Origin: a virus
Length of the DNA stretch: 64,000 nt
IMG/VR virus record: IMGVR_UViG_3300047160_002053
Location: 40,163 to 104,162 of that record
Reading direction: 5' to 3' (one strand)
Under the pieces are notes generated by a model. That model searched no databases and was not told the DNA's origin. It was given only the letters and a program-made list of their open reading frames with translations. Of the stretch, positions 23,987 through 63,189 are shown in pieces; the stretch's first letter is position 1; every line of letters starts with the position of its first letter. The position numbers and the translations under genes were made by a program.

Positions 23987-26572
23987 TCACGCCGCCAGCT
24001 CAAAAGTGAGCGGGAATACGCCCTGGACACCAGCTATAACGACGCCCATGGAAATTGACAGAACTGGACCGTTTAGGGAGATCTGGAGGCTATCCAGACC
24101 CGCGAATCGTGGGTCCTGTTCGATTAACTTATTGATAGAATTATAGATTTCCTGAACATTGACATCAGAAGTCATAATTCCTGCTTTAATACCTACCCCG
24201 AAATCAGGATGAGTGATCAATTTTCCCTTTTCAGTGGAAAGCTTGATCTTAATCGCTTGGATTAAATTTGTCATTCCCGCAGAATAACGGAAATCACCAA
24301 AACTGTTTGTGGCAACATCACCAGTATCGGTCAAAAGCCAATCAACCTTGCTCAGGCCGACCAAAGGATCAGCTGCTACAGACGTAGGAACTAAAATATT
24401 GGCATCATTTGATACCGGAAGATTGCTCGGGATAAAGATTTTCTGTTGACTATTAACCGTTCCAGGCAAGTAAGCTTGAACGTAAGCCTTATCTGCCGTT
24501 ACGAATGAATCAAGGTTTGGCTCTCCATCCAAAGAAAGCAGGAAGCTTGTGTCAGAAAGACGGTCGATTCCCAAAATTCTACGAGCGCTTGGCTGTTGAG
24601 TAGAGCTTTGAAGAACGATACGTTGTCCGATATACATGTCCGCAACGTCCGAAATAGTGATTTGACGACCTGTTGCGTTAGAAAGCAATGGGCGCTGGAA
24701 ACCATTTTCATCAATATAAGGATCGCGAAGATTGTTCAAAGTGGCGATTTCAATCCAACGCTGAGGGTCGCCAAGATAACGAGATGCAATCTGCTCAATG
24801 TTCAAACCAAAAGGAACTGGAGCAAGAATTTTAGAGTCTGGAATATCGAACGCGATACCTGCTTGATCAGCAAGACCGGCAACGTATTCCATGTTCGATT
24901 GTTTCTGGTCGTCATCAACTTCAGTAGTCGCAGTCAAAATATCGTAAGACTGCATGACATCATAAAGAGCCTTCAAGAGTTCGTACTCATCAAGGGTCAT
25001 AGGAGTCAAACGAGTCGATGGAGTTGGACGACCATAAATCTGGCTGTAGAAAGCGTCACCGGCACCGAAGTTATTCGAGAGTTGGAGGGCAAGATCTTGA
25101 ATAACAGCGCGTTGCTCTTTCAAATCGGCTACGCTAGTTGTACGTGCATCTTCGATAACTTGATCGACTGCAGCTTGTTGAGCATTGTTTAAGCTCATGC
25201 TATAGACCGGAACATTATCCATCAATTGGAAGTTGCGCTCTGGAGCACGGAACACGTTATCGCTTGGATCAATAGAATTCGCTGTAGCGGCCTTTGAACC
25301 GAGTTGTCCGCCCGATACCGCTGACATAGAAAGACCTTCAACTTGCGCAAAAGAAGCATTGACAGAAGTCAATGCGCTACGAACAGAAGGATCGCTAGAA
25401 GTCGTAGAGATAGAACTGCTTAAAATCTTCAAGCTATCTTTGATCGAACTTGCATAGTCACGCTGAATTTGAAAAGGAAGATCTGCAGCGGTAACTGCAA
25501 CACCTGCTAAATCTTTAATGAACAGTGCGCCCTGCCTTAAAACATCTAGAGGACGTTCAACGTCAGAACGAACTGCACCAATCAAGTCGATGGCCGCAGA
25601 CGTGAGTTTGCGCGCTTCACTGATTGTATTCAAAATACGATTCAAAATTCCAGGACTGATAGGCTGGATAGAAGGCTGAACCGCAGGAGCTTTTTCTGCA
25701 AGCTCAATACGACGCCATGCTTTCAATGTGAAAGAGTAATTGATCCAAGTTGCCTTGTTTTCATTTTGACTCCATTGAAAAATCATAGGAGTTACTACGA
25801 AAGACTGATTCTGCTTTGGAATATCAAAAACTAGACGCCAAGAAGCATTCTTAGGGTTTTTCTTAGCTTCAGCATACTGCTCAAGGAATTGTTGCAAAGC
25901 AAGTGCGTGATAATATCCCGTACTAGTTGCACCTGCAGCTGTTTCTTGAGGTTTTTGCGTCGATGGCTTACTGTTCGGAGACCCTGATGTCGCTGAATTC
26001 AATACTTTTTGAAATTGAGAAACAACGTTAGTCACGCCCTCCAAGGTACCGCCAAATAGGGACTGAAGGACTGACGGACTTTGAGGAGGGCTTGTGACGG
26101 AACTTCTATATGGCCAAACACCCATTGTTCCGGATGCTTGGATCATTTTAAATTTTAGGCCGCCGTGTTCTTCGGTAATACCGCGAATTGTGGCAGTCGT
26201 ATTGATTGCAAACTGATCAGTGATCGTTAACTGCTGAGGAGTAATAGGAAGACGAAATACCCATTGATTTCCCAATGGAATGAAGCTTATTGTAGAAAAA
26301 GTATCATTTGTAACGAATTCAACGCTTGGTGCGCCAGAATTACCGCCTACTGTCTGACCAGTAGCGGCGTCAACGACCAAAAGACGATATGGGAACAATT
26401 GATCCCAGCGAGCGGGGTCAATAGTCATAGCCGCCCAAAAACGACTAGATACGTCGTTCCATGGAACTGTAGTGTTCTGGCGTGCGCTCTTAATGAGCCT
26501 ATCCGCATCGGATAGTCCACTAAAACTGCTTGGATTACTAACCAATTGCGTTACGGAATCTAAAAATGACAT
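23987..26572 (-). CDS. baseplate fusion protein: tube-initiator-like + LysM + gp25/gpW-like
   Basis: N-terminal LPITPQQL.I motif; IASRYLGDPQRWIEIATLNNL (LysM); C-terminal NLIQAI.I.LST.KG....HPDFG (gp25). Confidence 0.75.
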   Translation of the reverse strand: MSFLDSVTQLVSNPSSFSGLSDADRLIKSARQNTTVPWNDVSSRFWAAMTIDPARWDQLFPYRLLVVDAATGQTVGGNSGAPSVEFVTNDTFSTISFIPLGNQWVFRLPITPQQLTITDQFAINTTATIRGITEEHGGLKFKMIQASGTMGVWPYRSSVTSPPQSPSVLQSLFGGTLEGVTNVVSQFQKVLNSATSGSPNSKPSTQKPQETAAGATSTGYYHALALQQFLEQYAEAKKNPKNASWRLVFDIPKQNQSFVVTPMIFQWSQNENKATWINYSFTLKAWRRIELAEKAPAVQPSIQPISPGILNRILNTISEARKLTSAAIDLIGAVRSDVERPLDVLRQGALFIKDLAGVAVTAADLPFQIQRDYASSIKDSLKILSSSISTTSSDPSVRSALTSVNASFAQVEGLSMSAVSGGQLGSKAATANSIDPSDNVFRAPERNFQLMDNVPVYSMSLNNAQQAAVDQVIEDARTTSVADLKEQRAVIQDLALQLSNNFGAGDAFYSQIYGRPTPSTRLTPMTLDEYELLKALYDVMQSYDILTATTEVDDDQKQSNMEYVAGLADQAGIAFDIPDSKILAPVPFGLNIEQIASRYLGDPQRWIEIATLNNLRDPYIDENGFQRPLLSNATGRQITISDVADMYIGQRIVLQSSTQQPSARRILGIDRLSDTSFLLSLDGEPNLDSFVTADKAYVQAYLPGTVNSQQKIFIPSNLPVSNDANILVPTSVAADPLVGLSKVDWLLTDTGDVATNSFGDFRYSAGMTNLIQAIKIKLSTEKGKLITHPDFGVGIKAGIMTSDVNVQEIYNSINKLIEQDPRFAGLDSLQISLNGPVLSISMGVVIAGVQGVFPLTFELAA

Positions 26573-26588
26573 GTTTTGCCCTCTTCAA

Positions 26589-26595
26589 TAAGATT
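26589..26595 (-). promoter_or_regulatory. AATCTTA putative late promoter motif
   Basis: Intergenic, 16 nt upstream of ATG 26572. Confidence 0.65.
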
Positions 26596-26635
26596 ACGGG
26601 TAGAAAGACTCCCTAAAATGTGATATATCAGAGAT

Positions 26636-27217
26636 ATGAAGCGTTTGATTTTACTTTCATTTTTATTTGCCCTAGGATCGTGCGTAGCTCCTTCTCAGCA
26701 CGGCGATTTGAAGCCAAAAGAGAAGCCTGAGCACTCTATTGAGATTACGGACCCCGAAATTAAAGTGATTTCGGACTCATATTTTGATATAAGTAAGCGA
26801 TTTAACTTAGGTTTTAGCAGAAAAGTCAGTATTGGATTCACAAAAATACCCAAAGACAACGTGATTGGACTTTGTACTTTCGGTAAAGATTTCAGAGAGA
26901 TAGACCTTGACGCTGACTTTTGGAATCGAGCTAGCTGGCCCTCAAAAGTAGCGCTTCTTTACCATGAAATGACGCACTGCTACTGTACCAGAGAACATGA
27001 TTTCGACGGCGGTACAATGTACCCAGATGGATCGCTCAGATACATTCTGGACCGATTCACAAGAAATATGCCTTCGCCCCTAAAACCTGAAGGATACCTG
27101 GATGACGGATGTCCGAAATCAATTATGCATCCGATTATCGTGGACAACTACTGCTTCAATAAGCATTATGGTTACTATATCGAAGAAATGTTTAACCGCT
27201 GTGATCCTTGGAAATAA
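26636..27217 (+). CDS. lipoprotein zinc metallopeptidase (metzincin-like)
   Basis: Lipobox LGSC; HEMTHCYCTREH zinc motif; SIM Met-turn. Confidence 0.75.
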   Translation: MKRLILLSFLFALGSCVAPSQHGDLKPKEKPEHSIEITDPEIKVISDSYFDISKRFNLGFSRKVSIGFTKIPKDNVIGLCTFGKDFREIDLDADFWNRASWPSKVALLYHEMTHCYCTREHDFDGGTMYPDGSLRYILDRFTRNMPSPLKPEGYLDDGCPKSIMHPIIVDNYCFNKHYGYYIEEMFNRCDPWK

Positions 27218-38383: not shown

Positions 38384-38875
38384 TTATTTTACCTTCAATC
38401 CCCATTTTTTAGCAAGCTCTTTTCGTCTTGCTTTATGAAGGCTTTCGGATTGAAGGTGCGTCTTTCCATCGAGATGATCTGTCTCGTGCTGAACGCAGAC
38501 TGAATGGATTCTTTTGAAAACTTTTTCTTGCTTTGCGCCAGTCTCGTCTTGATATTCTAGCTTAACCCAGTCCGCTCTTTCTTGAAGCGTGAGTTTTTCT
38601 CCAGGAGCGCTCAGGCATCCTTCCTCTAGGTTCGCGGACGCAACTGACTTTGAAACGATCTTAGGATTTACGATGTAAAGCTTTTCCCCTTCTGGACCAA
38701 GCATAGTGAACATGCGGAAAGTCAGGCCGACCTGATTTGCAGCAAGTCCCATGCCATTATTTGCTACCATGGTTTCCCACATGGAATCCAAAAGCGTCTT
38801 CAGCTCTGGACCAAAAACAGTGACTTCTTTGCAGACTTGGAATAGTTCCGGAGATGGAAATTTAAGGATATTCAT
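38384..38875 (-). CDS. def: peptide deformylase
   Basis: GMGLAANQVG, EGCLS, QHETDHLDG. Confidence 0.95.
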   Translation of the reverse strand: MNILKFPSPELFQVCKEVTVFGPELKTLLDSMWETMVANNGMGLAANQVGLTFRMFTMLGPEGEKLYIVNPKIVSKSVASANLEEGCLSAPGEKLTLQERADWVKLEYQDETGAKQEKVFKRIHSVCVQHETDHLDGKTHLQSESLHKARRKELAKKWGLKVK

Positions 38876-50585: not shown

Positions 50586-51707
50586 TCACTCGAAATAGTT
50601 CGGAACGAAGAAACTTGTGTTCCCTGTAATCAATTTTTCATCTTCACGGATACCTACGCCAACCGGATCAGCGCCGACAATCCAGCTACCAATCACAGGA
50701 CGGTATCCACCGATTTCTGGAAGAGTGAAAAGCTCCTGATAAATATGGCCTTCTTCGCCATATTCTCCGTCTTTTTCTTGAAGAGTTTTGCCAGTTTCGT
50801 CAACCAAAGTAACGTTGGCACCTTCGCGAGAAAAGATAGGCTTTTTCACGTATCCCTTGCCTTGAAGCGGCTCGAACTTAGATTCAAGCAGCAAAGGGTG
50901 ATTAGGATACATTTCCCAGAGAATTGGGAGCAAACCTTTATTTGACAAGATCATCTTCCATGCTGGCTCAATTAGACGGCATTTGTCTTTCAAAAGAGCC
51001 TCGCCAAAATCTTCGTGAACCATGAATTCCCACGGATATAGCTTGAACATATATTCAATGACGTTTTCATCGCCATCGTAAAAATACTCGCCATCACATC
51101 CAACTTCGTCTATGAAAAGGAATTCAACGTTGTGACCGGCTTGTTGAGCAAGATCCATGATGTATTCTGTATTGCGGAAATCCTCAAGACTTTCACGAAC
51201 ACACGTAAAATAGATCTTTGAAGGATTTTCTTTTTCTTTCAAATACTTCCATTGTTCAATAGAAGCTTCATGGATCGAATTGAATTGGTCCTTAAGCTTA
51301 CGATCTTCTTTCCAATACCACTGGATCAATCCAGCTTCCAGAAAAGAAGTAGGAGTGTCCGCATTGTATTCGTACATTTTGATTTGCCCATCTTTCATAG
51401 CCAAATCAAAGCGGCCATAGAACGTGAAGTCATCTCGTTCCCACGACTTTTTGATCAATGGAATACACACATCGGGAATTTGAAGTTTCGCAAAAAGATT
51501 TTTGTCGATGACATGTTGCACTGCTGCAAGACACATGTCTGAAAGCTCTTTAGATGCTGCATAAAGCTTTTCAACTTCTTCAGAAGTGAATTTATAGCCA
51601 GCTTTTTCTTGCCAGTACGGAATATCATCTACAGTGTGATAGTCAAACCCGTATTCCTGCAAGCGTTTCAGATAATCAGTGCGGAAAAAGAATTTTTCTC
51701 GTTTCAC
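50586..51707 (-). CDS. glutathionylspermidine synthase-like ATP-grasp ligase (YgiC family)
   Basis: YGRFD, EYNADTPTS..E, QFNSIHE, FKLYPWE, EP.WK.ILSNK, KP.FSREG.N; GTG start with GGAGG. Confidence 0.9.
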   Translation of the reverse strand: MKREKFFFRTDYLKRLQEYGFDYHTVDDIPYWQEKAGYKFTSEEVEKLYAASKELSDMCLAAVQHVIDKNLFAKLQIPDVCIPLIKKSWERDDFTFYGRFDLAMKDGQIKMYEYNADTPTSFLEAGLIQWYWKEDRKLKDQFNSIHEASIEQWKYLKEKENPSKIYFTCVRESLEDFRNTEYIMDLAQQAGHNVEFLFIDEVGCDGEYFYDGDENVIEYMFKLYPWEFMVHEDFGEALLKDKCRLIEPAWKMILSNKGLLPILWEMYPNHPLLLESKFEPLQGKGYVKKPIFSREGANVTLVDETGKTLQEKDGEYGEEGHIYQELFTLPEIGGYRPVIGSWIVGADPVGVGIREDEKLITGNTSFFVPNYFE

Positions 51708-51708
51708 A

Positions 51709-52197
51709 TTAACCTCCGATGCTCGCGTGACCGTAAGATCCGAATCCTCCACGGCTGATCGCCTTGCCAGAAACTCCTGTTCCAGCTGCGCGGCCAGAAG
51801 TAGCGACCGCTGCCTTTCCGACAGTAGCTTCAACGCCGCCGCCCGATGCGATCTGAGTGTGAGTGAAAGTTTCACCAGTTTGATAGATCACGCCGCGAGA
51901 ATAAACCGTAGAGCGACCGATCCAGTAGCCGTTGTAAAATCCGCTGTGGCCATAGTAACGATATGGATACGCAGGGCCAAGATAATAAGTCTCACCGTTT
52001 TGAGTGACTTTCTCGCAAAGCTTCGACGGATCAAAATCATCGTCATCGTCGAGATTTTTTGCAATCTCAGCTTTCGGATTATCGTTAACGCAGTCACCTT
52101 CAGAACCGTATTTATTTCGGACATCTGCATCCGGACGGCTCGAACAGGAGATCAAGGCGAACATCGAAAGAGGGAGTAAAAGTGTACGTTTTTTCAT
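51709..52197 (-). CDS. YgiB/DUF1190-like lipoprotein
   Basis: Lipobox LISC, Y....DC, C-terminal ISRGGFG; adjacent to YgiC-like gene. Confidence 0.8.
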   Translation of the reverse strand: MKKRTLLLPLSMFALISCSSRPDADVRNKYGSEGDCVNDNPKAEIAKNLDDDDDFDPSKLCEKVTQNGETYYLGPAYPYRYYGHSGFYNGYWIGRSTVYSRGVIYQTGETFTHTQIASGGGVEATVGKAAVATSGRAAGTGVSGKAISRGGFGSYGHASIGG

Positions 52198-56793: not shown

Positions 56794-57048
56794 TCACAGC
56801 TTGATTCGACCCGCACGGATTTCTTTTAAGGCCCACTCCACGCCCGCATAGAAGCCGCCGACGCGCCCGAAGTAGTTTGCCAGGATCTCGGTGTCATTGC
56901 GGTACACCGCATCTTTAGTGCCTTTGAGGGCGGTAAAAACGGCTTCCCTCTCTTCTGCTTCGGCCTTAGCTGCCGTGCGAATATCCTCGTGGGTCTCTTC
57001 AGGCGCAGACGGGACAAGGTGCGTTAGGTCCGACATGGGATTCTTCAT
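56794..57048 (-). CDS. hypothetical protein
   Basis: 84 aa, coupled to upstream gene. Confidence 0.6.
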   Translation of the reverse strand: MKNPMSDLTHLVPSAPEETHEDIRTAAKAEAEEREAVFTALKGTKDAVYRNDTEILANYFGRVGGFYAGVEWALKEIRAGRIKL

Positions 57049-57308
57049 GACCTATCCTTTAATCGCTTCATTGCTTTTTCATGACGCTCTTTAGTAGCCT
57101 TAATTCGAGCTTCACGCCTTGCTTCATTGGCCTCGATCTGCTCAGGTGTGGCCGGAATCATCTCGAACTGCGGATAGTATTTGGGGAAGAAGTCCTGGTC
57201 GCCTTCCCCATGAACAGTTGCAAGGAGAGGATCAGTCGTCCAGGTGCCTAAGTTCCAGTGTGGTAGCTCCACTAGATATTGGCCCTTGTACATGACAACG
57301 AATTTCAT
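57045..57308 (-). CDS. hypothetical protein
   Basis: 87 aa; AAGGAGG SD. Confidence 0.7.
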   Translation of the reverse strand: MKFVVMYKGQYLVELPHWNLGTWTTDPLLATVHGEGDQDFFPKYYPQFEMIPATPEQIEANEARREARIKATKERHEKAMKRLKDRS

Positions 57309-57331
57309 ACATTCCTCCTTCGCTTACGCTC

Positions 57332-57360
57332 AGGATAGCCAAAGAGGACGAGCAGGTCAA
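57332..57360 (-). promoter_or_regulatory. sigma70-type promoter
   Basis: TTGACC-17-TATCCT. Confidence 0.7.
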
Positions 57361-57527
57361 GTGCGGAGATTAGGCGTCGTATTCTCCGCATGTATATACA
57401 CCAGAGGCGTCTCATAGCGGGAAATCCCCAGTGAGGTCACGGGCATGGTCAATTATGCGTATAAACGAGCTGGATTATCCCTATTGGGGATAGCACGTAT
57501 GTATAAAGCTGTAAGGGCTTGATTTTA

Positions 57528-57606
57528 CAGAAAATTTTCCGGAAAAAATTTTTCGATTATACATACGGGTCCCATTTTGGAATATTTTTTTGGAAAAATT
57601 TTTTGT
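57528..57606. repeat. A/T-tract inverted repeats at the strand switch
   Basis: GAAAATTTTCC/GGAAAAAATTTTTC near-palindrome and a second TTTTTTTGGAAAAATTTTTT tract. Confidence 0.6.
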
Positions 57607-57640
57607 CGTTTGTTCATGTCCATATATCCCAGCCTTTAGC

Positions 57641-57656
57641 TGCAAGGGGTATGCCA
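57641..57656 (-). promoter_or_regulatory. sigma54-type (-24/-12) promoter
   Basis: TGGCATACCCCTTGCA: GG-N10-GC with TGGCA and TTGCA. Confidence 0.65.
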
Positions 57657-57866
57657 AACCCCGATGACCCATATTCCCTAGAGATTCCGCGTAGTTACAT
57701 GATTTGATACACTCCAAAGTCTCTTATTGGGCTGTCAACGGATTGCTCTACACTGTCTAATGATTTCTATGCGACTCGTTATCGACCCCGCTTAAGTTCT
57801 ACATAGAGGCCAAAAGGAATGCCAGCGTATCGAAATGGGATTCTTAGATTTATTTTTTGAAAGGCC

Positions 57867-57893
57867 TCAAGTTCCTATTGATTGCACCGATAC
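57867..57893 (+). promoter_or_regulatory. sigma28/FliA-type promoter
   Basis: TCAAG-N15-CCGATAC, about 30 nt upstream of ATG 57924. Confidence 0.7.
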
Positions 57894-57923
57894 GTTGTAT
57901 GTAACCCAAACAAAGGAGCACAT

Positions 57924-58319
57924 ATGCAACTGCTTAAAGGAAACGAAGGACGCAAGGTCATGGTAGAGGTCAACGGCCATATGGTCGAGGCCGTGGTCTC
58001 GGTTATGTGGGACTATGAGGACACTCATCCGGTTAGCGGTGAGGACTTCGATTTTGGTGACTCTCAGGCCAATGACGATTATGAGGCGCGCTTCTTTAGA
58101 GGCGAGTTGTCAAACGTGATGGTGACGGTGCGCGTTATGGCGGAAGGTCTAGAAGGGTTAGACCATTTAGGCGCGTGTCATGTCACAAGTCGAGATTTTG
58201 AAACTGACCTAATGCAACTTGTCAACGACCACGATATGATAGGCCAAGCGAGTGATGAGCTTAAAACCAATATAATCGAGGCGGCTAGTCGTCTCCAAAA
58301 ATATGCGAAAGGGGCCTAA
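57924..58319 (+). CDS. acidic hypothetical protein
   Basis: Start ATG 57924 with AAGGAG SD. Confidence 0.75.
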   Translation: MQLLKGNEGRKVMVEVNGHMVEAVVSVMWDYEDTHPVSGEDFDFGDSQANDDYEARFFRGELSNVMVTVRVMAEGLEGLDHLGACHVTSRDFETDLMQLVNDHDMIGQASDELKTNIIEAASRLQKYAKGA

Positions 58320-58320
58320 T

Positions 58321-58566
58321 ATGGACCAAAACAAGACACTCAAGGCGGGCGACCTCGTTAAGTATCACGTCCAGGACGAGACCTTGACAGAGCTTGGTTT
58401 TAAGCTAGGTCAAATCTATATGGTCAAGACTACGCTTAAAGGCGCTTTAGCCGCTGACAACGGTGACGCCTATGCGGTTCTGGTTATGGACGGTGCCTTG
58501 ACAGACCACGCGGATCATTTCGCTAAGCACCGTTGTCCAGTGGTTTTGCCTAGAGGTGTTCAATGA
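58321..58566 (+). CDS. hypothetical protein
   Basis: Start ATG 58321 right after the upstream stop. Confidence 0.65.
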   Translation: MDQNKTLKAGDLVKYHVQDETLTELGFKLGQIYMVKTTLKGALAADNGDAYAVLVMDGALTDHADHFAKHRCPVVLPRGVQ

Positions 58567-58847
58567 GTCGTCCTAATATGACCAAAATCACAAAGTTGGA
58601 GTTGTACACGATCTTATATGGGCTAGGTTTCAAAAAGCGTTTGGAGCTTGCAAAACTATGTGGCGTTGGAATAGGTGCGGTTAACCAGTGGTTTCGACGC
58701 GAGGAGATTCCGACCTATAGGCTTGCTTATATCAAAACACATATAGGCGATACAAAAGTCATGCCATTCGTGGAGACTGCAAATGACGTGCCAGGACCAA
58801 ACTACTGTCCCAATTGTGGTCATTGTCTCAAAAAGACGCACGAATAG
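58563..58847 (+). CDS. Cro-like HTH protein with C-terminal Zn knuckle
   Basis: ELAKLCGV...AVNQW...IP; CPNCG. Confidence 0.7.
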   Translation: MSRPNMTKITKLELYTILYGLGFKKRLELAKLCGVGIGAVNQWFRREEIPTYRLAYIKTHIGDTKVMPFVETANDVPGPNYCPNCGHCLKKTHE

Positions 58848-58855
58848 CCGGAGGG

Positions 58856-59375
58856 TTGACTCCAGCTATTTTGACGGTCTCATTATGAGAAATGTGGCGC
58901 GGTCAAACCGCGTTTTTTGAGACCTTTTCAAAATGACCACGTTGACTAAACGAAGCCGCCGACCTAACGAAAATGACCTAACTATTTGATATAATTAGAT
59001 TATTTGTCTATTGACCATGCCCGTGACCTATTTTGAGGCGCGGGCCGCCTTTAGTGGCCTTTCCTATCCTTCCCTCTATGCCAAAATTGACACGCATGGG
59101 ATTGACACGCTAACCGATTCTATCTAGTGAACCTCTGAAACATTCGACCGCTATAGAGCGACGTTGCTTCACAATGAGACCGCAATTAGTCCTCAAGTGT
59201 TAGCCTATAGATAAGATTGCATGGACTTAATAGGCTCTATTATATTCGTTTTAAGCGTATAACTGATTGACAGTGCCAAAAAGATTGACAAAACGCCATA
59301 ACATATCGAATAGACTAATGAATTGACTCAAATCAAATTTGAGCTGAGCAAAACCTTGACAGTGTTAGAATTGAC
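58856..59375 (+). repeat. array of co-oriented TTGAC boxes in a 630-bp non-coding region
   Basis: 11 plus-strand TTGAC counted by hand, six being TTGACA; ATTGACACGC twice (59086, 59101). Confidence 0.75.
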
Positions 59376-59403
59376 ACGGTTAATAAATTCAATGCGTTAG
59401 GGT

Positions 59404-59419
59404 TGGCACGCTGGATGCA
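59404..59419 (+). promoter_or_regulatory. sigma54-type (-24/-12) promoter
   Basis: TGGCACGCTGGATGCA: GG-N10-GC, upstream of ATG 59476. Confidence 0.65.
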
Positions 59420-59475
59420 ATGAGTTAGGTCAACCCCCCGCGCCACGGAAGGCGCATTTTTGAAAGGCGGCTTAT

Positions 59476-59694
59476 ATGGCTCGGGACTTAGTTGCTGATT
59501 TTCTCAAAAAACACTCTCTTGCGGACATCAAGGCCGAAGTTGTAGGCGAAACCCTTAACGAGTATGGCACTAAGTTTGCAAGCTATTTTTTCGGCAACGG
59601 TGAATTGATCGTGTGTCCTGCTGATGAGTCTCAGGATGAGACAGTTTACGTTATTGACACTTATGGAGACCGTGATTTTTTAGTTGAATTCTAA
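59476..59694 (+). CDS. small acidic hypothetical protein
   Basis: 72 aa; GAAAGGCGG SD. Confidence 0.7.
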   Translation: MARDLVADFLKKHSLADIKAEVVGETLNEYGTKFASYFFGNGELIVCPADESQDETVYVIDTYGDRDFLVEF

Positions 59695-59731
59695 AACGCT
59701 ATGCGTTATGCTTTAGGTATTGGAGGCGATT

Positions 59732-60280
59732 ATGCGACTGCTTAGAATGTTCTACTGGACTCGGGTTATTAAGGCCCTCGCCTATTATGGTTTGATTTTG
59801 ACTAACTTGATCTTATCACTCAACCTTGTCATGGTTAAGTTTCGCCCGTCTCAGATTGACCCTCAACTGCAATTTTGGGTTGACGAATTCGGGCGCGTGG
59901 GCCTTGAACATGGCGTCAAGGTTTCGACTCATGGCCTTATTATGCGTTTTGTGGACCGCTCTAGTTTTGGCGGTGAACATGAGTTATTAGGTCAAAAAGT
60001 TGTCACGTTGGCCCAATGCAATCCTATGACTAACACAATCGAGATAGGCCGCGAACCATATCAAAATGCGACTGAATGGCAACGCCGTCTCGTTTTGTTT
60101 CACGAAATGGGTCATTGCATTCTCAAATTGGGTCACGACGAGCGCATAGCTGCAAATGGTATGCCAAACTCAATCATGTATCCCATTATGACACCTATTC
60201 AATACAATCCAGCGACCGCGTTTCAATATGACGCGCAGCTTTTTGGGTCATACGCATTTAATCAAGGCGGCTCGAAATGA
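59732..60280 (+). CDS. membrane-anchored zinc metallopeptidase (related to 26636..27217)
   Basis: N-terminal TM; HEMGHCILKLGH; SIMYP Met-turn. Confidence 0.75.
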   Translation: MRLLRMFYWTRVIKALAYYGLILTNLILSLNLVMVKFRPSQIDPQLQFWVDEFGRVGLEHGVKVSTHGLIMRFVDRSSFGGEHELLGQKVVTLAQCNPMTNTIEIGREPYQNATEWQRRLVLFHEMGHCILKLGHDERIAANGMPNSIMYPIMTPIQYNPATAFQYDAQLFGSYAFNQGGSK

Positions 60281-60354
60281 GTCAAAAAGAGTATCATTTG
60301 TGGATATGTGCCTATCTAGGACTGGACCCGACTAAAGTTAAATTCGTCGGTTGA
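60277..60354 (+). CDS. microprotein (25 aa)
   Basis: ATGA-coupled; MSQKEYHLWICAYLGLDPTKVKFVG. Confidence 0.35.
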   Translation: MSQKEYHLWICAYLGLDPTKVKFVG

Positions 60355-60379
60355 CAGAACGCATTGAACGCGCTAAGCT
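60351..60379 (+). promoter_or_regulatory. sigma70-type promoter
   Basis: TTGACA-17-TAAGCT. Confidence 0.65.
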
Positions 60380-60418
60380 AAATAGTGACCTAAAAACCAA
60401 TAGCCAAAGGAGGCTAAC

Positions 60419-60721
60419 ATGCAAGACGGAAACCAAACCCAAAACACGACCCAAGTTGAGACGCCGAATCAATTCAAAGTCATCAAGCGTTATGCTAACC
60501 GCAAGCTCTATGACACCGAAGAGTCTCAATATGTGACACTCACTCAAGTTCAGGACTTTGTTAAGGCGGGACGCGAAGTCATCGTCATTGACAACGCCTC
60601 GAAACGAGACATCACGGCTAAAACGCTGTTGGCGTCTATCATTGAGACAGAATCAGAGCGCGAAGACCTTTCGACTTCTGAAGTTGTGGCGCTTATCAAA
60701 CGCGGACTTTCGACAAAATAA
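60419..60721 (+). CDS. PhaR-like DNA-binding domain protein (PHB_acc_N)
   Basis: IKRYANRKLYDT..S.YVTL......V..G....VID.....DIT...L. Confidence 0.9.
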   Translation: MQDGNQTQNTTQVETPNQFKVIKRYANRKLYDTEESQYVTLTQVQDFVKAGREVIVIDNASKRDITAKTLLASIIETESEREDLSTSEVVALIKRGLSTK

Positions 60722-60724
60722 CGC

Positions 60725-60751
60725 TAAAGTTTTGCCGTGGCCGTCCGATAA
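60725..60751 (+). promoter_or_regulatory. sigma28/FliA-type promoter
   Basis: TAAAGTTT-N11-TCCGATAA. Confidence 0.8.
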
Positions 60752-60797
60752 GTTGTTAAGTCACTGAATCGGACGGTCATTCAACGAAAGGATCAAA

Positions 60798-61457
60798 ATG
60801 GGACGCAACGGAGAGATTTCGATTCAAATTGAGATTGAGATTCCCGCCATGCCAGCGCCGCCGCAAAAACTTGAGTTTGACGTGCCAAATTTAGAGCAGC
60901 GTCACGTTTTGAAACGTGTTAAGGAAACGACAGGCATTGACGTTGTGACCTCTAAAGGCGAGGGCCGTGCAATTTTGGGTTTTGCGTCTTGGTTCGCTAG
61001 TGGATGCTATGCGAGGCCCGAAACTAGCCCGATGCTGCAACGTGAGACTATCGTTTTATTTTTGGAACCTCATGACCCATATTGGTACAGCGTACTATTC
61101 CACGAATTAGGACACGCCACGGGACACCAAAGCCGTTTGGCTCGAATTGGTATCACGAATCACGAAATGTATGCTTTTGATATGCGCGTGCGTGCAATCG
61201 AGGAAATCATTGCCGAGAGTGTCGCGGCGCGTGTTATGGACCGCTTAGCCCTTGCAACCGAAACGACTAGAGCGAAAAGCCGCGACTATTTGAGGCATTT
61301 TGCAGAGCCCGTTGGCATTGATATTGCAGACAGCGAAATTCAACACTCTATTAAACTCGCCTATGATTTAGTCATGCAATGGCTTGAATTCATGGAGATT
61401 TCTCGTTATGAAACGAAATTAGGCGACCTCATGAAGGAATTTAATAAGTTTTTTTGA
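60798..61457 (+). CDS. ArdC-type zincin metallopeptidase (MPTase-like)
   Basis: Y..LFHELGHATGH.SRL.R...EEIIAE...Y. Confidence 0.8.
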   Translation: MGRNGEISIQIEIEIPAMPAPPQKLEFDVPNLEQRHVLKRVKETTGIDVVTSKGEGRAILGFASWFASGCYARPETSPMLQRETIVLFLEPHDPYWYSVLFHELGHATGHQSRLARIGITNHEMYAFDMRVRAIEEIIAESVAARVMDRLALATETTRAKSRDYLRHFAEPVGIDIADSEIQHSIKLAYDLVMQWLEFMEISRYETKLGDLMKEFNKFF

Positions 61458-61476
61458 TTTTTTTGACAAAACGCGC

Positions 61477-61503
61477 TAAAGTTTTAGGAGAGACAGCCGA
61501 TAA
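61477..61503 (+). promoter_or_regulatory. sigma28/FliA-type promoter (exact consensus)
   Basis: TAAAGTTT-N11-GCCGATAA. Confidence 0.85.
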
Positions 61504-61519
61504 GTTATATATGGAGGCA

Positions 61520-61663
61520 ATGACAATGAACGCGAAACGAATCAAAACAATGAAAGTCGAAAGGATGACGGCGACAATTCAAAAACGCCTAGAGGCCTTC
61601 GGGTTTCAAATTGTTTGGATTAAATTCGTTTCATACGGACACACTGTCATTGGTTACAAATGA
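61520..61663 (+). CDS. small basic hypothetical protein
   Basis: Start moved to ATG 61520/61526 behind GGAGG; the longer TTG ORF would cover the promoter. Confidence 0.6.
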   Translation: MTMNAKRIKTMKVERMTATIQKRLEAFGFQIVWIKFVSYGHTVIGYK

Positions 61664-62196
61664 AACGTATCAATTTGATCTATTCCGCTTTAGTGCTTAT
61701 CGTCACTGTTTCCCTTGGTTTCGCTATGCGTACCGAAACGAAACCCGCGCCGGTTGAGACTGTCAAGGTCGAGCCACAAGCTAAAGACCAAAGTCAAGAC
61801 GTGCGCGACGTTGCGTTAGCTAACGGTTTCACGCCTTCGGAACGTATCGTCAACGCTATTTTGCGTGCTTCTGAAACGTATCAGATTGATTCAATCGAAT
61901 TGACTGCAATCGCTATAGTGGAGACAGGCCTAGGCAAAAACGCTAAGACTCGCGTCAATTCAAACGGCACTAAAGATCATGGCTTGTTTCAAATCAATAC
62001 AGTGAACGCACCTAAATGCGTTGAATATAACTTAGACAGTCCCGAAGGTTCCGCGCTATGCGCTGCAAAACTACTGTCTCAAATCAAAGCACGTCGCGCC
62101 GATTATTTAGGCGTGTATCATTCTAAAACACCGTCCAGAAAGTTGGTATATATGCAAAAACTGGACCAAGTGATGTCTCAAACTGATAATAAATAA
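61660..62196 (+). CDS. exported lytic transglycosylase (SLT family)
   Basis: Signal/TM; AIAIVET, N.NGT.D.GLFQIN, G.YHS. Confidence 0.85.
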   Translation: MKRINLIYSALVLIVTVSLGFAMRTETKPAPVETVKVEPQAKDQSQDVRDVALANGFTPSERIVNAILRASETYQIDSIELTAIAIVETGLGKNAKTRVNSNGTKDHGLFQINTVNAPKCVEYNLDSPEGSALCAAKLLSQIKARRADYLGVYHSKTPSRKLVYMQKLDQVMSQTDNK

Positions 62197-62219
62197 TTTC
62201 AAAAAACGCAAAATAAAAC

Positions 62220-62247
62220 TTGAGTTTTTTAGTCATGTATCCGATAC
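62220..62247 (+). promoter_or_regulatory. sigma28/FliA-type promoter (variant)
   Basis: TTGAGTTT...TCCGATAC with spacer one base longer; upstream of ATG 62271. Confidence 0.6.
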
Positions 62248-62270
62248 TAGATATATGAAAGGCGGTAGTT

Positions 62271-62666
62271 ATGAACATTAAAACCAATATCCTGATTTTC
62301 TCAGTGTTTCAAACCAATACGTCACGCGAGTTGAACGAATCACGTCACCGCGACGTTTTGGCAAGACTGCAACGCTCTGGAGTCCCTGCAATCGAATTGC
62401 AAGGCAAATACAACGGCAACGAAGAGTTGTCAATTTTGGTTGACGGTTTCAATCACCGTGCCGACGTTGAGTATTTTTGCCGTGAATTCAATCAAGAGTG
62501 TTATTTAGAGTCTCATAATGACCGCGCAACGTCGCTTGTGTTTCCCGATGGGACACGCCAAAAACTTGGCACGCTCGTTGCAGCATCTAAAGATGAGGCG
62601 GAGGCGTCTGGCTCATATCCATACAATCCCAATTCGGGATATTTCATTGTGAGACAAGGAGCTTAA
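62271..62666 (+). CDS. S-adenosylmethionine lyase (T3 SAMase-like)
   Basis: S.F..N....N.SRHR, G.Y...EE.S, C.EF.Q.C.L match T3 SAMase motifs as recalled. Confidence 0.8.
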   Translation: MNIKTNILIFSVFQTNTSRELNESRHRDVLARLQRSGVPAIELQGKYNGNEELSILVDGFNHRADVEYFCREFNQECYLESHNDRATSLVFPDGTRQKLGTLVAASKDEAEASGSYPYNPNSGYFIVRQGA

Positions 62667-62667
62667 T

Positions 62668-63189
62668 ATGCCGAATCATGTTGAGAATGACTTATATATT
62701 CGTGGACCAAAAAAAGACATTGAGGCGTTTTTCGAGGCCGTGCGCGGCAAAACGGATCAATATGGCACGACCGAAATTGACGCTGATAAGCTGATTCCTT
62801 ATCCTAAGCGTTTCGCGGACGCTGATAAGGCGGCGCGTGACTTTCGAGAGGCTAACCCCAAAGCGCCGTGGTCCGAAGGTCCACAAGACGGTTATAATCA
62901 AGGCGGCTACGAATGGTGCGTTTCAAATTGGGGCACGAAATGGGGATTCTATGACTTTAGTCCGATTCGTTTCGGCAAAAATGGGGACCGCGCTAAGGTA
63001 TCGTTTCAAACGGCATGGAGTCCAGCGTTTCCGTTATTCAATGCAATGGCTAAAAAATTCCCGACGTTGACATTTACAGTCCGCTATTTCGAGCGCGGAA
63101 TGGGTTTCAAAGGCCTTTACAAGGTCAAAGGAGACGAAGTGTTAGCGGACGAATGTAGCGAGAACTATCGCGGAAACCGTGGAGGCTAA
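62668..63189 (+). CDS. DUF1281/YubB-like protein
   Basis: MPN...N.L, Y.W...NWGTKW, F.TAWSP. Confidence 0.8.
   Translation: MPNHVENDLYIRGPKKDIEAFFEAVRGKTDQYGTTEIDADKLIPYPKRFADADKAARDFREANPKAPWSEGPQDGYNQGGYEWCVSNWGTKWGFYDFSPIRFGKNGDRAKVSFQTAWSPAFPLFNAMAKKFPTLTFTVRYFERGMGFKGLYKVKGDEVLADECSENYRGNRGG

Follow-up and report, generated by a model that had tools for sequence, protein, structure and literature searches.

Background

Early transcription in phages is normally explained by sigma-70 or by phage polymerases. Sigma-54 promoters do not fire without an ATP-driven activator, which makes them the tightest on/off switches of bacteria; their closed complexes are stable and stay silent until the activator acts. 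This activator, an enhancer-binding AAA+ ATPase, usually uses an activator site 70-150 nt upstream. 

Proven sigma-54 sites of Salmonella show conserved T-TGGCAY and TTGCA-G blocks and a variable spacer (PMC3844500). The same study summarises ChIP work that places intragenic sigma-54 sites, in both orientations, in Salmonella, Vibrio and E. coli; some drive the next gene, and others were proposed to produce antisense RNA or interference (PMC3844500). Among phages, the lytic Pseudomonas phage YuA carries a sigma-54-like promoter, for which a promoter trap and mapping of the 5' end gave support (Ceyssens et al. 2008, cited in PMC10914365). The YuA promoter was the only published phage case recovered by our literature search, which turned up no account of clusters of such sites. 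Phage sigma-54-site clusters are almost undescribed in the literature.

Genome context and gene layout

The window analysed here is the final 64 kb of a linear virus record of 104,162 bp (CheckV completeness 65%), which derives from an uncultured large tailed phage. Its products include DNA polymerase III alpha, a DnaB-like helicase and SbcC, as well as ribonucleotide reductase, RNA ligase and glutathionylspermidine synthase, and its virion genes are long and lie on the minus strand. The minus-strand gene arm ends at 57308. Only two long non-coding stretches occur in the window, the next gap being shorter than 200 nt, and the layout around them is as follows:

57309-57923: first non-coding gap, at the strand switch, holding site 1
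57924-58847, plus strand: cassette of three small genes, the last of them a weak Cro/CI-like HTH gene
58563-58847, plus strand: Cro-like HTH gene, third gene of the cassette
58848-59475: second non-coding gap, holding site 3 and TGACC repeats
59476 to contig end, plus strand: block of small genes, the early-gene block

The plus-strand block encodes an HExxH metallopeptidase-like protein, a PhaR-type DNA-binding domain, an ArdC-like zincin, a lytic transglycosylase, a SAM-lyase family protein and an Api92-like protein. Such a gene set is typical of an early, host-takeover region.

Judged by DNA polymerase III alpha, the nearest phage in culture is Myxococcus phage Mx1, with just 34% identity, and its genome holds no copy of the strict motif defined below. 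No close DNA relative was found in the phage collection searched, three early or flanking proteins had no relatives in IMG/VR, and a 186-aa early protein had none among 5.8 billion proteins. Searches with the Api92-like protein and the glutathionylspermidine synthase gave distant relatives only; metagenomic relatives of the latter stand at 93% and 79% identity, and the best bacterial homologues of its gene (50586-51875, minus strand) are from Chitinophagaceae (50-54% identity). Despite these homologues, the strong Shine-Dalgarno use of the phage argues against a Bacteroidota host. Together with the FliA-type motifs described below, it hints that the host may be a flagellated proteobacterium. 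An Rfam scan yielded a tRNA-Ala and nothing else.

A family of seven sigma-54-type sites

The original prediction had singled out two motifs, TGGCATACCCCTTGCA at 57641-57656 on the minus strand and TGGCACGCTGGATGCA at 59404-59419 on the plus strand, as sigma-54 (-24/-12) promoters with GG-N10-GC spacing, placed in gaps that are the window's sole long non-coding stretches. Their coordinates, strands, spacing and locations were all confirmed. A strict pattern, TGGCA[CT]-N5-[TA]TGC[AT], was searched over the 104-kb record, and predicted starts were placed about 12 nt past the GC dinucleotide. We show that the two motifs are the sole intergenic members of a seven-site family of near-consensus sigma-54 elements:

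57641-57656, minus strand: site 1, TGGCAT-N5-TTGCA, intergenic and facing the minus-strand arm; predicted start about 57630
58778-58793, minus strand: site 2, antisense within the Cro-like HTH gene, at its 3' end (stop codon 51 nt further on)
59404-59419, plus strand: site 3, TGGCAC-N5-ATGCA, intergenic; predicted start 59430, with the ATG at 59476 46 nt on
59565-59580, plus strand: site 4, within a 72-aa gene; predicted start 59591, giving a 141-nt leader to the ATG at 59732
60151-60166, minus strand: site 5, antisense in the 186-aa HExxH metallopeptidase-like gene, whose stop codon is 111 nt further on
61313-61328, plus strand: site 6, within the ArdC-like zincin gene; predicted start 61339, giving a 181-nt leader to the ATG at 61520
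62567-62582, plus strand: site 7, TGGCACG-N4-TTGCA, within the SAM-lyase-like gene; predicted start 62593, giving a 75-nt leader to the ATG at 62668

Seven of the eight copies of the strict pattern in 104 kb fall in the 6692-bp early region, where they span 57641-62582, and one lies in the other 97.5 kb. Dinucleotide shuffles of the early region (n = 3000) averaged 0.027 copies and never exceeded 2 (Poisson P ~2e-15), and a reversed-pattern control gave 0 copies there. The spacing is fixed: of the 14 TGGCAY hexamers in the early region, seven have WTGCW exactly 5 nt on, and no other distance in the 0-30 nt range gave a match. All seven sites have GG-N10-GC and match the consensus TGGCAC-N5-TTGCW; at site 3, the first base of the -12 block is A, not T. 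The flanking sequence differs at every site, indicating that the sites are not duplications, and the nearest spacing between sites is 161 nt, with no tandem or mirror pairs in the cluster.

The sigma-54 likeness proposed for the two motifs extends to the whole family. The seven sites mirror the positions conserved in Salmonella, including the variable spacer, and match the consensus as well as the proven promoters listed there (PMC3844500). Site 59404 differs from the Salmonella rsr promoter in the table of that study by one base over 18, a likeness that is possibly due to chance (PMC3844500). Capture of a host rtc promoter was considered and rejected, because BLAST of the site-3 region against E. 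coli genomes returned no extended match.

Placement of the sites relative to genes

Five of the seven sites are intragenic, two of them antisense (58778 and 60151). All five begin on the third codon position (P = 0.012), where their GGC/GCA or GCA/CCA triplets encode small residues, and all five lie 51-126 nt ahead of a stop codon (P = 0.005). Such a single codon phase and nearness to stops fit selection at the DNA level, acting over coding sequence near gene borders.

For the rightward sites 59404, 59565, 61313 and 62567, the next start codon lies 46, 141, 181 and 75 nt past the predicted start, respectively, and each of them sits in a gap or in the final 130 nt of a gene. These distances make the four plausible single-gene promoters, of which site 59404 appears to be the best candidate for a classical one. 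The two antisense sites, 58778 and 60151 (both minus strand), are at the 3' ends of plus-strand units, near terminator-like hairpins. A hairpin and T-run past site 59404 folds no better than shuffles (z = +0.88) and is thus not called a terminator.

This placement changes the picture of two outward-facing master promoters gating both gene arms. The outward orientation of the pair stands, while a back-to-back arrangement does not, as a three-gene cassette with its own terminators lies between the two motifs. Since the pair belongs to a seven-site family, with five intragenic and two antisense members, the two-master-promoter picture is left without support. Nor does site 57641 look like the gate of the left arm: some 320 nt separate it from the first minus-strand gene, and this gene has a sigma-70-like promoter of its own (57360-57332).

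As a separate observation, four predicted starts (57630, 58767, 60140 and 62593) have an ATG or GTG 0-7 nt on, in each case that of an ORF of just 2-49 aa; the excess is marginal (4/7, P ~0.05).

Other elements of the two non-coding gaps

The first gap contains, besides site 1, the following elements:

57360-57332, minus strand: sigma-70-like promoter for the minus-strand arm
57434-57453: left copy of a 20-bp inverted repeat
57523-57606: AT-rich palindromes
57867-57893, plus strand: weaker sigma-28-like motif

The second gap contains, besides site 3:

58845-58920: two strong terminator hairpins closing the three-gene cassette (folding z = -3.9)
59010-59029: right copy of the 20-bp inverted repeat
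59086-59376, plus strand: co-oriented ATTGACA boxes
59327-59343: 17-bp palindrome CTCAAATCAAATTTGAG, some 100 nt ahead of the start predicted for site 3

The palindromes of the first gap are nested and AT-rich (e.g., TTTTCCGGAAAA), with 26-nt arms that are 81% complementary, and they lie at the cumulative GC skew minimum; they may be an unwinding element or origin. A 78-aa TTG ORF across this AT-rich part is probably spurious. Reading outward, ATTGACCATGCCCGTGACCT forms a perfect 20-bp inverted repeat, with one copy per non-coding gap, 1556 nt apart. The copies bracket the three-gene cassette, and a TGACC-N7-TGACC direct repeat is contained within the repeat. A metagenome scan with the 20-bp repeat gave a sole match, a chance one within a gene of a 62%-GC bacterial contig. 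The heptamer TGACCTA occurs eight times in the 104-kb record, every time within 57048-60386 (3.4 kb), with 0 copies in the other 100 kb, and may be the operator of some early regulator; the copy at 59425 (minus strand) overlaps the start predicted for site 59404.

There are seven ATTGAC(A/T) boxes at 59086-59376 on the plus strand, all in the same orientation, three of them as pairs 15-18 nt apart. No convincing -10 element was found 16-18 nt from any box, and the boxes could be iterons or regulator sites, not sigma-70 promoters.

Activator genes and other sigma classes

Gating of both arms by a bacterial enhancer-binding protein, as originally proposed, finds no support in the phage sequence. 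Neither PF00158 (the activator AAA+ domain) nor PF04552 (the sigma-54 DNA-binding domain) had a match in the 104-kb, 65% complete record, and k-mer and palindrome searches detected no upstream motif common to the seven sites. The palindrome CTCAAATCAAATTTGAG is the sole activator-site-like element upstream of any of them. No sigma-70 domain was detected by Pfam in the contig ORFs at 967-2073 and 25768-26724.

The accompanying claim of sigma-28 sites in the same region holds, as FliA-type motifs are present. The FliA consensus TAAAGTTT-N11-GCCGATAA has four copies, each 25-50 nt ahead of a start codon, which we regard as predicted promoters. One is the weaker motif of the first gap listed above, and the others are:

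60725-60751, plus strand: strong sigma-28 (FliA)-type motif, TAAAGTTT-N11-(T)CCGATAA, before the gene at 60798
61477-61503, plus strand: second strong sigma-28 (FliA)-type motif, TAAAGTTT-N11-CCGATAA
62220-62247, plus strand: weaker sigma-28 (FliA)-type motif, matching the consensus

The two strong motifs are textbook cases with the same CGC in front of both, and site 6 (61313, plus strand) is located upstream of a sigma-28-like promoter. With seven sigma-54-type and four FliA-type motifs, the small early genes each have their own promoter-like element, drawn from several sigma classes.

Similar clusters in other phages and in bacterial bins

A 260-kb contig of 33% GC, IMGVR_UViG_3300037851_000542, was reached via its Api92-like protein. 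All six of its strict copies fall within 12 kb; four of the six are oriented against the local genes, and face-to-face pairs occur. No activator was found in this phage, where weak AAA+ matches are RuvB and a clamp loader, and it has generic enzymes in common with the window phage and no candidate DNA-binding protein. The 260-kb phage also holds 34 copies of the palindrome AGCTTTATATAAAGCT, confined to 10.6-27.3 kb, which flank every sigma-54-type site on one or both sides; one gap packs three sites into 75 nt, two of them face to face.

A scan for tandem pairs of the motif returned at least 120 viral and at least 120 bacterial loci, and the fractions below refer to the 120 matches listed for each. 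Among these listed matches, four or more distinct sites were present at 34/120 viral loci vs 4/120 bacterial loci, and 33 of the 34 viral arrays had sites on both strands. Most bacterial "arrays" among the listed matches were rejected as simple coding tandem repeats. The protein families common to the listed viral arrays were terminase, endolysin and portal only, and the arrays have no family in common with the window. Motif clusters were found in phages of 33-64% GC, and arrays of 10-21 sites occur elsewhere. Localised sigma-54-type clusters thus recur across many unrelated phage contigs. As the arrays lack a common phage regulator, a host factor in common explains them better than a phage regulator does. 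A scan of the YuA genome revealed no cluster of consensus sites (6 loose matches vs 10 in the reversed-pattern control).

Four of the six bins with true arrays encode sigma-54, and the other two (labelled actinomycete and Saccharibacteria) show none. One of these two array contigs is plainly phage-like, and the binning of phage contigs is unreliable. The contig in question, CALOAN010000046.1 (32001-40000), from an "uncultured actinomycete" bin without a sigma-54 gene, carries portal and tail-fibre assembly genes. It has five distinct sites round a divergent gap, one of them identical to window site 62567 over 16 nt.

Interpretation of the sites

We infer, with slightly better than even confidence, that the seven elements are docking sites of the host sigma-54 holoenzyme and that the rightward four act as activator-dependent single-gene promoters. 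Most likely, host sigma-54 RNA polymerase would dock at all seven sites, and sites 59404, 59565, 61313 and 62567 would serve as activator-dependent promoters of single small early genes, with transcription starting at the predicted positions, while neighbouring early genes would use FliA-type promoters. The leftward sites 57641, 58778 and 60151 would give a leftward or antisense transcript, or the polymerase would merely be held there. The activator would be an enhancer-binding ATPase, supplied by the host or encoded in the third of the phage genome that the record lacks. If promoter and non-promoter readings are summed, binding by host sigma-54 is, on the motif evidence, quite probable.

The mixed orientation of the sites (two antisense here, 4/6 against the local genes in the 260-kb phage, both strands in 33/34 of the viral arrays listed) implies that plain promoters are insufficient as an explanation and argues that part of the seven-site family does something besides starting mRNAs. 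One possibility, rather unlikely in our judgement, is that the sigma-54 holoenzyme binds but that its main role is not mRNA initiation, the sites acting instead in sigma-54 titration, as roadblocks or as antisense switches. Under titration, many replicating phage copies could soak up scarce sigma-54 and so blunt the sigma-54-dependent responses of the host; as roadblocks, complexes parked at gene ends could bound the early transcription units. Such a role would suit sites that are intragenic, on both strands and near gene ends in either orientation, with both antisense members at the 3' ends of plus-strand units near terminator-like hairpins, and would agree with the lack of an activator gene in 104 kb and of a common upstream site. 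Both the 260-kb phage, with four of six sites against its genes and face-to-face pairs, and the viral arrays listed, with both-strand sites in 33 of 34, point the same way. However, no experiment is known to show sigma-54 titration or roadblocking in a phage, a set of seven is small beside the 10-21-site arrays elsewhere, and all four plus-strand sites are well positioned as promoters.

A fuller and slightly less probable version, which we put forward as speculation, would have sites at early-gene borders on both strands, here as in many uncultured phages, park or trap scarce host sigma-54 polymerase and thereby silence stress, repair or motility programmes, with switchable antisense starts or roadblocks closing the early units and FliA-type promoters coupling early expression to the flagellar state.

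It is less likely still that another DNA-binding protein, of phage or host, reads the motif, for example as a T(G/T)GCA direct repeat with an 11-bp period, and that the sigma-54 likeness is coincidental. Mixed orientation and intragenic sites would be expected of such a protein, and the early region offers candidate regulators (the Cro-like HTH protein and the PhaR-type DNA-binding domain) as well as private motifs (eight copies of TGACCTA and the perfect 20-bp inverted repeat). The two array bins without a detectable sigma-54 gene keep this explanation alive. Yet the sigma-54 logo is matched at every conserved position, with a spacer that varies as in real promoters, and clusters of this motif occur in phages spanning 33-64% GC, none of which has a DNA-binding protein in common with the window phage.

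A Type I restriction target or replication iteron was rejected, as the sites are scattered through genes and phages avoid, rather than cluster, restriction targets. Chance, or a by-product of composition, codon usage or duplication, has a next to negligible probability. About 0.4 matches to a single 16-mer with 11 fixed bases are expected in a genome of 104 kb, and this may account for the lone copy at 38741. For the cluster, the results of shuffling and of the spacing test refute chance, with seven copies against 0.027 expected, a single exact spacing, unrelated flanks and no paralogy of the genes that carry the sites.

If the sites work, they would show a lytic phage linking its anti-defence genes (SAM lyase, ArdC-like zincin and metallopeptidase) to a host signal or, alternatively, a phage disarming a host sigma factor. 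With only seven short sites, these predictions are testable in a standard reporter host with a promiscuous activator, and the natural host is not needed.

Comparison with known systems

Like the classical sigma-54 promoters (glnAp2, pspA and rsr/rtcBA), the phage sites have the -24/-12 consensus with exact GG-N10-GC spacing, and site 59404 has a palindrome about 100 nt upstream. Unlike these promoters, the phage has seven sites in 5 kb, on both strands and with five intragenic, and has no cognate activator gene in 104 kb and no common upstream site. The location within coding sequence and the use of both orientations are shared with the intragenic sigma-54 sites of bacteria. In contrast, density differs greatly, as the bacterial study gives 70 sites per whole chromosome vs seven in 5 kb here (PMC3844500), and the phage placement is orderly, in one codon phase and with all intragenic sites within 126 nt of a stop codon. 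The lytic phage case recovered from the literature, YuA, has a single sigma-54-like promoter (PMC10914365), whereas a cluster of seven sites is present here. The window cluster resembles the other IMG/VR arrays (the 260-kb contig and the 34 loci) in that it is localised, occupies both strands, lies in a block of small genes and comes without an activator gene; unlike them, it is small, dispersed, mostly inside coding sequence and interleaved with FliA-type promoters.
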